Source: Heterodontus francisci
Taxonomy: Eukaryota
Direction: 5' to 3'
Assembly (NCBI RefSeq): GCF_036365525.1
Contig: NC_090411.1
Location: 32,008,432 to 32,072,431 of the forward strand
DNA: 64,000 nucleotides
The notes beneath the pieces are model-generated. The model did no database searches and was not told where the DNA came from. It was given only the letters and a program-made list of their open reading frames with translations. This document shows positions 2,868 to 64,000 of this stretch, one piece after another (position 1 is the stretch's first letter; the number at the start of each line of letters is the position of its first letter). The position numbers and the translations under genes were made by a program.

Positions 2868-5476
2868 ATGATGGCCTCTCAAGTGTGTCAGAACTACCAC
2901 AAGGACTGTGAAGATGCTGTTAACAAGCAAATCAACCTGGAGCTCTATTCCTCCTATGTTTATCTTTCCATGGTGTGTATTGCTTTCTGGGGGTCCTATT
3001 TCAAAGTTAAGATTGGAATTTCAATGCATTTTGAGTAGCTAGAATTTTTCTGGGCCAATCAGTTGGGTTTATTATCTATCTCTGTAGTTCTCCCTGGTCT
3101 TAAATCAGTGAACACCCTTGAAACAGGGACTCTGTTCCTTTCTCTGTAATCTGTGTCCAATTTTGAAAGTAACCCTCAGGTTCCATGAGGTTTCCAACTG
3201 AGGATTCATGTTGAAGATGTATAAACCAAGTCACATTTTCCCACTTAAATGATGATTTACATTTAGTGACTAGTTAGTAAACATTGTCTGACTGGTTCTG
3301 GACTGTCTTTTTCCCCCTTTGTTAATGAATAAATCCTGTGGTGCTGTCCTCTTTATAGGAGGGGTAATTATCTTGCATGAAGCAGTAGTCTACAGGTCTT
3401 TCTCTACTGAATGAAGAGAATAAAATCTCACTCACTTCAATCTTCATTGGGGGTAACAAAGGATGTCCTACTGTTTAGTATAATTTGAATGCTGAAATGT
3501 AATTCCGATCCAAATAGTATTATTGCTTTTAGTGATCTTGCAGGGAGGGGTGTTTCAACAATTTTCCATTTTACAGTATAAACTTGAAAAGCTAAGCCCC
3601 TTTTAATTGAAAGCAAATTCTTTTGAGGTGAAGGTGATTTATCTACTGTGTAATTACTACCATTTTTCATAGTCATGAATGAGACTTGGGTAGTTGAGTA
3701 AATCCTGTAGTGTTAAGCTCTTGTCTGAGGAGTAGTGATATTACATGAAGCAGTAATCTTAAAAATCTCATTCTACTGAATGCAACTTCTCTTCTATCAC
3801 TTCATTGGGTGACAAAGGATGTCCTGCTGATAACTATAGTTTGAGTGCCTGAAATGCAACTTTGATCCAAACAGTATTACTGCTTTTTTTTTTTGTAATG
3901 TTACAGGGAGGGGCATTTCAACATTTAACATTTTACAGCTGAATTTTGGAAACCCAAGCCCTGTTAATTGAAAGCAAATTTTTTTGATATAAAGAATGGG
4001 TGATTTATTTACCATACCATTTCTGACATTGCCATAAATGAGATTTGGGTCTGACCTCTCTTCCCTTTCCATTTTGTCTCGACCTGCAGTCCTATTACTT
4101 TGACCGGGATGATGTTGCCCTGCGTCACTTTGCTGAGTTCTTCAAGGAGCAGTCACATGAGGAACGGGAGCACGCTGAGAAACTACTGAAATTCCAGAAT
4201 AAACGTGGAGGCCGAATCATCTTGGCAGACATCAAGGTTGGGATTTTATCTTCCTGGAACCCATGATCTAACTTGGATACTTTCAGGCTATGTTCCTTAT
4301 TCTAATGTCAGTACTCAATCTAGAGTTTAATGAGTAAAATTTCTAGTGTTGGTGAGTTGGGATGAGTGACCTTTTGTCTCCTATATTTATAAAATCAATA
4401 AATGGATTTTCAGAAGGAACAACGTCTGCTTTGTCAACTATTGGCTGAAACATACAGTGCTTAACTAGGTAACAGTCTTGAGAATGTGGGCCACAGCTGT
4501 AGATGTCCCTTGGATGTAGTTGAGGATTATCAAGGAGAAAAAGAAAATTTAGCGTAATTGGGATTCGAGCTTTGGCCAAAAATTGCAGTGTAGAGGCAAT
4601 GAACTGATCCAGTGTCCTGTAATGGTCTGTCAACCCAGTGATTAAACCCCATCCCTCATAGTATTGGGGTGCACAGATTGTCTTTGTTACTGCTAACCCT
4701 GTTGACCTTGAGCATAACATCCCTTGGACTTTGCACTCCCACTAACAGGACCACTATTTTGTTCCAGAAGCCAGAGCAGGATGAGTGGAGCAATGGTCTG
4801 GAGGCAATGCAGAGAGCTCTGCAGATGGAGAAGGATGTGAACCAGAGTCTGCTGGATCTGCACAAACTCTCCACTGGCAACACTGACCCTCATGTAAGTT
4901 AATATTGGAATGAGTTTTCAGGTTTGAAGGTGATTAGAATCTGCCTTTAACTCTGGTAGCATTCCATAAGTTTTTTGTCTTCATATTTTAAAAAAACCAA
5001 GACATCCACACTAGATCTGGATCACTGAACAGTTTGCAAGGTACTTGGTTTCTCTGGCATCAATCTTGACTTGACTCTCAGTTTAATGGAATTGATTTGC
5101 CACATGTGGGTAAATTTAGGCTTTGTCTGGTTAAATATATCCACAGAATCTGAATGATTTCCTTCTGTGTTGTTCACTTGGCCCACTGCCTGTGCTTCTT
5201 TCTCTCGAGAAAGTCTCGCTCCCATGTACAGTACTTGTGCTATTATCCCAGTGCAAATAAAAATCTTATCCAATGAAGATTCTTGCTTTTTTTTAAGCTA
5301 ACTATACTCACCTGTTTCTCATGTTCCAGTTGTGTGACTTCCTGGAGACTCACTACTTGGATGAGCAAGTGAAGATGATCAAGAAGCTTGGAGATCACAC
5401 CACCAACCTGAAGAGACTGGGAGCCCCTGACAATGGCATGGGAGAGTACCTGTTTGACAAGCACACGCTGAGTTAA
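2868..5476 (+). CDS. Ferritin heavy/middle-type subunit (fth1-like), copy 1, intact, 174 aa
   Basis: Exons 2868-2972, 4090-4236, 4768-4893 and 5330-5476, with GT..AG phase-0 introns at the standard vertebrate ferritin positions. Protein reads [66 protein letters not shown].../KPEQDEW...[18 protein letters not shown]...FDKHTLS*. Equivalents of ferroxidase E27, Y34, E61, E62, H65, E107 and Q141 are present. Private change GDHI>GDHT. Confidence 0.95.
3325..4055. repeat. Diverged tandem duplication of about 365 bp in intron 1 (copies 1, 6 and 10)
   Basis: The motif series taaatcctgt..gaagcagta..aaaggatgtcct..aattgaaagcaaatt..atgaga(c/t)ttgggt occurs twice. It is single-copy in intron 1 of copies 3, 4, 7, 9 and 11. 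Confidence 0.75.
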
Positions 5477-5556
5477 TTAGGGTTCTGCAACAATTAGTTC
5501 TGTACTTGCTGAATGCTTTTTGATTGCCAGTTTTCTCATCTCTTGCTGTATATAGA

Positions 5557-5562
5557 AATAAA
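5557..5562 (+). terminator. Polyadenylation signal of copy 1 (equivalents follow every complete copy)
   Basis: AATAAA about 80 nt after the stop codon, followed by T/GT-rich sequence. Conserved in all copies. Confidence 0.7.
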
Positions 5563-62141: not shown

Positions 62142-62723
62142 ATATATAGAGAGAAACTATTTTCTCTGGTGGGGCAGTCCAGGACAGGGGCTATAATCTG
62201 AATATTAGAACTAGACCATTCAGGGGTGATGTTAGGAAACATTTCTTCACAAAAAGGGATATGGAAATCTGGAATTCTCTCCCCCAAAATGTTGACATCA
62301 ATTAAACATTTCAAAACTAAAACTGTTAGATTTTTGTTAGGTACAGGTATGATGCAATATGGATCCAATGCAGGCAAATGTCCTTAAGTGACAAACCATG
62401 ATCTAATTGAATGGTGGAACAGGCTTGAGGGGCTGATTGGCTTCCTCCTGTTCCTATGTTCCAATCACAGTATAATCATCCAAACCTGCCTGTATTCCAC
62501 AGCTCTCATTGTCGCTGGGTCCAACCCCCACAGCCTGACGACATTGTTAACTGGTGCCTGGATTCAATAACTATTCCTGACTGGCTACCTGGAATTGTCA
62601 ATCATCATTAATGATGTCATTCCCTGTTTGAATGCAGGCTGTCCCAACGGTACAAATACAAGAGCTTGTGCAGGAAACAGTTACATTGTTGTTTGAACTT
62701 AGCTTCTGTTAGTAGTAAAGATT

Positions 62724-64000
62724 ATGATGGCATCTCAAGTGTGTCAGAACTACCACAAGGACTGTGGAGATGCTGTTAACAAGCAAATCAACCTGGAGCT
62801 CTATTCCTCCTATGTTTATCTTTCCATGGTGTGTATTGTTTTCTTGGCGTTCTGTTTCAAAGTTAAGACTGGGATTTCAATGTATTTTGAGTAGCTAGAA
62901 TTTCTGTAGGTCTCACAGCTCCAGCGACCTGGGTTCAATTCTGGGTACTGCCTGTGTGGAGTTTGCAAGTTCTCCCTGTGTCTGCGTGGGTTTCCTCCGG
63001 GTGCTCTGGTTTCCTCCCATATGCCAAAGACTTGCTGGTTGATAGGTTAATTGGCCATTATAAATTGCTCCTAGTATAGGTAGGTGGTAGGGAAATATAG
63101 GGACAGGTGGAGATGTGGTAGGAATATGGGATTAGTGTATGATTTAGTATAAATGGGTGGTTGATGGTCAGCACAGACTCTGTAGGTCGAAGGGCCTGTT
63201 TCAGTGCTGTATTTCTAAACTAAAACTAAATATTAATTGGGTTTATAATGTATCTTTCTAGTTCTCCTAGACTTAAATCTGTGAATACCCTTGAAACAGG
63301 GACTCTATTCCTTGCTCTGTAATATTTATGTCCAATTTTGAAAGTAACTCCAGTTCTGTGTAGTTTCCAATAGAGGATTCACGATCATGTATAAACCTAT
63401 TCAACTTGAATGGCAACAATGAAGTTTAGTGACTAGTTAGTGGAACACTGTCTGACTAGTTCTGGTCTGTCTTTCCCCCTTTGTAAATGAGTAAATCCTG
63501 TGGTGCTGAATTCTTTTGTTTGAGTAATGAATTTGCATGAAGCAGTAATTGAAAAGTCTCATTCAGTCCAATAAGACTTTTAGATCACTTGTCTCTTCAT
63601 TGGTGGACGAAGGATGTCCTGCTGATAAATGTAGTTTAAATGCTGAAATGAAACTTGGATCCAAATAGTGTTACTGCTTTTAGTAATGTCACTGGGAGGA
63701 GCATTTCATCATGGTTAGTATTTTACAATATTAACTTGAAAAACCAAGCCCCTTAATTGAAGAAGATTCTTTTGAGATAAAGAATGGATGATTTACTAGG
63801 ATGTTATTTTTAACGTGACCATGAATGATATTTGGGTCTGACCTCTCCCTTTCCATTTTTGCCTCTACCTGCAGTCCTATTACTTTGACCGGGATGATGT
63901 TGCCCTGCGTCACTTTGCTGAGTTCTTCAAGGAGCAGTCACATGAGGAACGGGAGCACGCTGAGAAACTGATGACATTCCAGAATAAACGTGGAGGCCGG
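62724..64000 (+). CDS. Ferritin heavy/middle-type subunit (fth1-like), copy 11, 3' part outside the window
   Basis: Exon 1 at 62724-62828 (DCGDAV variant). Exon 2 runs from 63875 to the window end. Near-identical to copy 4. Confidence 0.88.
62910..63230 (+). mobile_element. 5'-truncated HE1-like SINE in intron 1 of copy 11
   Basis: Same insertion as 21050-21370. Confidence 0.85.

Follow-up and report, generated by a model that had tools for sequence, protein, structure and literature searches.

The 64,000-nucleotide stretch of Heterodontus francisci DNA analysed here (the window; positions 32,008,432-32,072,431 of contig NC_090411.1, hereafter C41, in a genome of 6.0 Gb) carries 11 co-oriented ferritin units, all of which are interrupted by GT-AG introns at the same three positions (Table 1). 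Copies 1, 3, 4, 6, 7, 9, and 10 are complete and intact and retain all seven ferroxidase ligands. The original prediction for this DNA, namely 11 co-oriented four-exon ferritin genes, seven of them complete and intact with all ferroxidase-centre residues, is therefore borne out in both parts. The layout of four exons and three GT-AG introns is that of vertebrate cytosolic ferritin genes (PMC4117605; here and below, published work is cited for those passages of each source that bear on the point), and exon 2 of the array copies, including those in the window, matches Pfam PF00210 at 38-47 bits, compared with a cut-off of 24.5.

Table 1. Ferritin copies and associated features, in window coordinates.
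Feature	Position	Strand	Remarks
Promoter block of copy 1	2748..2802	+	20-mer 2748-2767; TATA-like box 2795-2802
Exact promoter 20-mer, other starts in the window	7840, 20744, 25704, 31423, 38206, 43473, 55832, 62604	+	9 of 11 copies in total
Copy 1 (g56), intact	2868..5476	+	exons 2868-2972, 4090-4236, 4768-4893, 5330-5476
Copy 2 (g57), broken	7971..9935	+	TGA at codon 76 (9067-9069); 2-base loss near the end of exon 4
Copy 3 (g58), intact	14449..16672	+
Copy 4 (g59), intact	20864..23664	+
Copy 5 (g60), broken	25834..27798	+	TGA at codon 6 (25849-25851)
Copy 6 (g61), intact	31543..34169	+	query for the sequencing-run comparison
Copy 7 (g62), intact	38326..41112	+
Copy 8 (g63), broken	43604..45567	+	TGA at codon 76 (44692-44694)
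Copy 9 (g64), intact	50084..52210	+
Copy 10 (g65), intact	55952..58532	+
Copy 11 (g66)	62724..64000	+	exon 1 and most of exon 2 in the window; rest beyond the edge, intact in the genome
Reverse-transcriptase remnant (Pfam RVT_1), spacer 5' of copy 3	12175..12648	+	duplicate at 47809-48282

Both window edges fall inside the array. When the contig was extended and the copies were counted in the 822 kb around the window, which contain no N, the ferritin array was found to occupy C41:31,645,393-32,248,502 (603 kb) and to comprise 91 units, of which 68 are intact, 15 broken, and 8 partial; the broken class includes g28 and g43, whose sole failure is the exon 4 acceptor as placed. Thus, the array continues past both edges of the window, as had been anticipated, a real and larger array is confirmed, and the proposed dosage amplification is supported. 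All 83 four-exon array genes keep their three introns, which does not fit a reading of them as processed retrocopies. Exact matches to a 26-mer from exon 2 number 82 genome-wide, 78 of them on C41, whereas its reversed control has none, indicating that the array signal is not due to chance. The leftmost 26 units lie on the minus strand, and for 15 of the 21 that were tested a plus-strand partner exists from which introns 2-3 differ by about 1-7%, which indicates a large inverted duplication.

An assembly artefact, in the form of stacked haplotypes or falsely duplicated blocks, was the refutation that the original prediction had set for itself, and the higher-order repeats of 5-27 kb at 92-98.5% identity, together with the inverted arm, are features that such an artefact could produce. 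However, none of the 33 duplicated blocks of at least 5 kb exceeds 98.5% identity, and 28-35 intron classes were distinguished among 76 array genes (the ungapped four-exon genes on which the statistics below are also based; 7 gapped or badly anchored four-exon genes and all partial units were left out), which argues against stacked haplotypes. Considering also the absence of N in the 822 kb and the comparable clusters reported from independent shark assemblies, an artefact is extremely improbable. Unequal crossing-over and the one large inverted duplication would alter copy number by birth and death. For a decayed retroelement-like spacer piece (window 240-1250 and its homologues), hits of at least 300 bases number 54 within the array, whereas some 215 kb of flanking sequence contain none, indicating that it was amplified together with the units. 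Tandem Repeats Finder reported nothing beyond two trivial repeats. A U2 small nuclear RNA-like copy is present within the array at a retroelement insertion (L051:4637-4771, minus strand, 58 bits).

The products of the 68 intact genes are 173-176 residues long, with a mean identity of 95.9%. E24, Y31, E58, E59, H62, E104, and Q138 are all kept in 64 of these genes, and the four that are missing a ligand lie outside the window; the nucleation residues E54 and E61 are present in all 68. Judged by these predicted ligands, the array subunits are of the ferroxidase type (H or M). Residue 54 fails to distinguish H from M here, since E54 is also found in a single-copy ferritin gene on another contig (C14) and H54 in a neighbour of the array that bears an iron-responsive element (IRE). 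For rare changes in exons 2-4, the ratio of nonsynonymous to synonymous change (dN/dS) is 0.29 in the intact copies as against 1.5 in the broken copies (Fisher p = 0.0014). The intact copies are under purifying selection.

These values bear on the other possibility raised beforehand, that of a diversifying system, in which the subunits of the array would form a varied repertoire serving mixed cages or immunity. The 68 intact genes do encode 67 distinct proteins with 12 C-terminal endings, as such a repertoire would. Nevertheless, the high mean identity and the low dN/dS for rare exon 2-4 changes oppose it, 4 of the 11 common amino-acid variants in exon 2 are CpG transitions, and the homogenisation of the exons described below wipes out differences. 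The diversifying proposal is accordingly not sustained, and we regard it as very unlikely.

Ferritin genes are also found elsewhere in the genome. A second cluster, at C41:26,667,352-26,838,771, about 5 Mb from the main array, contains 13 intact genes and 1 broken gene and may run beyond the stretch examined. Its introns are about 9-13% apart and its exons 1-4%, and all 13 intact genes encode Lys at position 59 and His at position 54. Lys at ferroxidase ligand 59 would be expected to weaken ferroxidase activity, as in L chains. To the right of the main array lie four single divergent ferritin genes, g92-g95, with 54-73% protein identity over exons 1-3. In addition, a single IRE-bearing ferritin gene is located on C14, and four intronless copies of the array type are located on contigs C3, C32, and C48, which implies transcription of the array in the germ line. 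The deep forks of the within-genome ferritin tree are unresolved.

Even at E 5, the Rfam search detected no IRE in the window, and it detected none in the rest of the array, whereas the same kind of search detected IREs just outside the array, in g94 (43 bits) and, in decayed form, between g92 and g93 (37.6 bits). A motif scan of the leaders likewise gave 0/76 for the array genes and 0/13 for the second-cluster genes, with g94 positive as a control, and the best stem that it found in the array leaders has 2 of 5 pairs. A TATA-like box lies upstream of 64 of the 76 genes, and the inferred leader is 23-79 bases long. No copy shows the usual IRE of iron-regulated vertebrate ferritin mRNA in its predicted leader, although a further upstream exon may exist. 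The genome-wide IRE search, in which 82 candidates were scored, represents a floor because it missed one IRE that was found later.

The promoter 20-mer of Table 1 belongs to a conserved block. Across the 6 Gb it is matched exactly at 57 sites, of which 48 are in the array and 9 in the second cluster, and its control has none. The promoters of the array and the second cluster align with a score of 66, compared with a shuffled maximum of 35, whereas the promoters of g92-g95 and the C14 gene gave no alignment to the array promoter above shuffles. The two clusters may be co-regulated. The output of the array would be set by transcription and copy number, not by iron-regulatory proteins, and the second cluster, with the same promoter and Lys59, would supply a co-expressed, ferroxidase-weak partner subunit. 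Mixed cages, if formed, more likely pair the main array with this 13-gene cluster.

Among the 76 genes, four-fold sites are most alike in exon 3 (difference 0.031) and exon 2 (0.037), less so in exon 4 (0.092, or 0.04-0.08 by group when its last four codons are left out), and least alike in exon 1 (0.216). The intron ends differ by 0.27-0.31, compared with 0.365 for shuffled DNA. Exon 3 has the majority sequence in 44 of the 76 genes and in 7 of 8 broken ones, and it is identical to the array majority in the broken copies 2, 5, and 8 of the window. In 1682 of 2850 gene pairs, neither intron flanking exon 3 gives a 60-base blastn hit; in these pairs, exon 3 differs at a mean of 2.05 of 126 bases and is identical in 31%, and the mean is about the same, 1.59 differences, in the 54 pairs whose two flanks are each at least 90% alike. 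The differences in exon 1, on the other hand, track the divergence of the flanks (2.7, 8.5, and 13.5), and at the exon 3 donor, identity declines to the background level over about 7 bases. The likeness of exons 2-4 despite unalignable introns, with exon 1 following the promoter, points to gene conversion limited to the exons. Exons 2-4 are not intrinsically frozen, since between the single-copy ferritins and the array 2/14 to 9/12 four-fold sites per exon differ, and 6/6 in one case. Furthermore, a five-difference exon 3 haplotype is common to two genes near the right edge that are 0.45 apart on the promoter tree, and the nearest kin (0.12) of one carrier have the majority exon 3. Parts of this haplotype also occur in the C3 retrocopy and in another organism (D).

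These results suggest that short tracts of gene conversion at the DNA level are the likely cause of the uniformity of exons 2-4. In this view, selection on the protein would hold the exons similar, similar exons would seed short conversion tracts that end where the introns diverge, and conversion would overwrite synonymous sites and even the exons of pseudogenes. Exon 1 would largely travel with its promoter.

Birth and death without conversion, combined with very strong purifying selection on synonymous sites of exons 2-4 for codon use, RNA structure, or small-RNA pairing, might yield the same uniformity. The purifying selection on the intact copies is real, and weak, biased hints of slow change between species come from five other organisms that share 5-7% of the 31-mers sampled from copy 6, in one of which 846 of 1280 contigs reached at least 95% identity. 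However, selection of this kind is difficult to reconcile with the identical exon 3 in 7 of 8 broken copies, with the free divergence of the same exons among single-copy ferritins, with the mosaic haplotype on the promoter tree, and with exon 1 of the same mRNA, which is under no such constraint. We consider this explanation unlikely. The idea that exon 3 is frozen across species was also entertained and dropped: organism C shows 0/128 differences in exon 3, yet its copy of the IRE-bearing neighbour gene shows 2/126, with about 5% in an intron, indicating that it is a close relative and uninformative on this question. For organism D, 4/27 differences in a presumed piece of the neighbour gene provide a biased hint.

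The abrupt borders could also arise from RNA-templated correction, in which cDNA or RNA of highly transcribed copies would repair the exons of all copies. Such a process would account for borders at splice sites, within a few bases of which the homogeneity stops, and the four intronless copies attest to germ-line reverse transcription of array mRNA. The spared exon 1 is the farthest from the poly(A) end, and reverse-transcriptase remnants are found in the spacers. Conversely, intron loss was seen in 0/83 four-exon genes, and homogenisation does not extend to the 5' leader, the last codons, or the 3' flank; unhomogenised untranslated flanks have served as an argument against an RNA route for KRTAP1 (10.1101/282418). 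Moreover, diversity falls as a step at the border of exons 1 and 2, with no gradient. RNA-templated correction is therefore improbable, and conversion between DNA copies is the explanation that we carry forward.

For the expression of the array, exons 2 and 3 were found joined at GT-AG sites in contigs of two runs from the same organism, taken as RNA by guess, and exons 1-2 and 2-3 were found joined in runs of two other organisms. One spliced contig has 3 differences in exon 2 and 0 in exon 3, and the retrocopies are far more distant (91-95%). These exon-joined contigs bear out transcription for at least some copies, the absence of which would have undermined the original prediction. The ferritin cluster of the Greenland shark shows ovary-specific expression (10.1101/2024.09.09.611499), and ferritin transcripts are abundant in fish follicles (PMC1488847). 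Together with the retrocopies, these reports argue for oocyte provisioning, suggesting that the array ferritin is probably used in the oocyte.

An expansion of ferritin genes in sharks has already been published, and the present array is, by its layout, a further member of that kind. Yang et al. (2026; PMC13214024) describe 59 copies of FTH1b, split between two tandem clusters (55+4), and raised numbers in sharks generally, and Sahm et al. (10.1101/2024.09.09.611499) report 155 FTL and 179 FTH1 copies that are clustered, syntenic in the white shark, and expressed in the ovary. As in those shark clusters, dozens of intron-containing genes on a single chromosome are arranged in a large and a small tandem cluster (here, C41:31.6-32.3 Mb and C41:26.7-26.8 Mb), with a separate single-copy H-type gene (here, the IRE-bearing gene on C14), some partial copies, and an old expansion. 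This match agrees with the earlier inference, made from the letters alone, that the DNA is probably from a shark. The numbers differ, with 91 units here as against 55+4 or 155+179. The loss of the IRE, the exon-limited homogenisation, and the promoter common with the Lys-59 cluster are features added to the known expansion, none of which is described in the passages of Yang et al. or Sahm et al. drawn on here. The terms for gene conversion and the IRE are absent from the main texts of both papers, on which their supplements may bear. A literature search on the ferritin IRE of cartilaginous fishes returned no paper, and the term "ferritin genes" occurs in none of the gene-conversion papers listed.

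Comparison with other systems places these features further. The array genes resemble the salmon M chain in their four exons, in the ligands E24, E58, E59, H62, E104, and Q138, and in the nucleation residues E54 and E61, whereas salmon M1-M3 all carry an IRE, which the array genes lack (PMC4117605). Tandem expansion is also seen for fthl27 of the hadal snailfish (14 copies; PMC10746142), compared with which the array has six times more units and far older introns. In mammalian KRTAP1, concerted evolution limited to the coding sequence has been explained by short conversion tracts and selection (10.1101/282418). The array shares with it the homogenised coding sequence, the diverging flanks, and the abrupt switch at the border, but whereas the KRTAP1 genes are few and single-exon, about 80 spliced genes are involved here, the switch is seen again at the borders of introns, and exon 1 is exempt.

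Overall, we read the array of ~90 units as an IRE-less dosage amplifier that mass-produces one ferroxidase-type subunit independently of iron, probably for the oocyte, with exons 2-4 kept alike through DNA conversion, and we assign this reading a probability of about 0.72; its tissue and mechanism are what we infer. Many promoters and the lack of an iron brake on translation would result in bulk output of one subunit, which would remain uniform through selection and through short conversion tracts confined to islands of homology. A wider version is unlikely, in which sharks would run a second, iron-blind ferritin programme of two IRE-less clusters under one private promoter element, building an oocyte cage from the ferroxidase subunit (~70 genes) and a Lys-59 partner (at least 13), with abundant transcripts as templates for the repair of exons in all copies, including pseudogenes, so that exons 2-4 stay frozen as the introns drift past alignment.

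Several observations weigh against the dosage-amplifier reading. The tissue of the sequencing runs is unlabelled and their RNA status is a guess, and some FTH1b transcription in fin and blood (Yang et al., PMC13214024) indicates that restriction to the oocyte is not universal. On the promoter tree, exon 1 and exons 2-4 have similar retention indices (0.48 and 0.33-0.42, respectively), and the test separates them at high-frequency exon 1 sites alone. The difference in exons 2-4 showed no correlation with physical distance (rho 0.02, p 0.36), and the G+C content at third codon positions is 0.60-0.62 in exons 2-3 and 0.62 in exon 1, giving no GC-bias signature of conversion. The gene pairs are non-independent, with counts inflated by recent block duplications, and the pseudogenes with a common stop, whose introns are about 1% apart, arose too recently to be decisive.

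Published work has connected the shark ferritin expansion with ferroptosis and longevity. The anatomy of the array argues for a plainer purpose, bulk provisioning, to which an IRE-less, promoter-sharing, and homogenised array is suited; ovary expression and iron independence would therefore test the longevity reading directly. The array further offers an unusually clean natural test case for gene conversion, in which homology islands of 126-147 bases in ~80 paralogues lie between unalignable introns, with an internal control exon, pseudogenes, and retrocopy fossils at hand. As such, it is relevant to how little homology suffices for ectopic conversion and to whether the templates are DNA or RNA.

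Among the single-copy ferritins to the right of the array, g92 (C41:32,255,254-32,259,661) is divergent, with Lys58, Gln62, and Lys137, and g95 (C41:32,310,856-32,317,318) has lost most ferroxidase ligands. For g93 (C41:32,264,659-32,275,072), there is no Met at the usual start and the frame is open upstream; read from a Met about 60 codons earlier, the added segment is rich in Arg, Gly, Leu, and Ser, contains no acidic residue, and, judged by eye, resembles a mitochondrial targeting peptide. Mammalian mitochondrial ferritin is a retrogene without introns, whereas g93 has introns. The orphan IRE 3.8 kb upstream of g93 on the same strand (C41:32,261,230-32,261,263, plus strand, 37.6 bits) has an altered loop and is either a relic or an upstream non-coding exon. 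The two C48 retrocopies (4.63 and 4.73 Mb) lie in a recent segmental duplication that is 0.7% different over 3 kb.

The neighbours of the array on C41 include a RuvB-like gene at 30.5 Mb, a Bcl-2-family hit at 37.5 Mb, and glycogen synthase at 38.4-38.7 Mb. BAX-FTL-GYS1-RUVBL2 is a known gene block, to which C41 was compared; the fit is only loose, and glycogen synthase is also found near the C14 gene. A genome search with the Pfam Bcl-2 model gave at least 150 matches on many contigs, most of them spanning model positions 1-63, and these many half-domain matches look like a dispersed repeat that carries half of a Bcl-2 domain.

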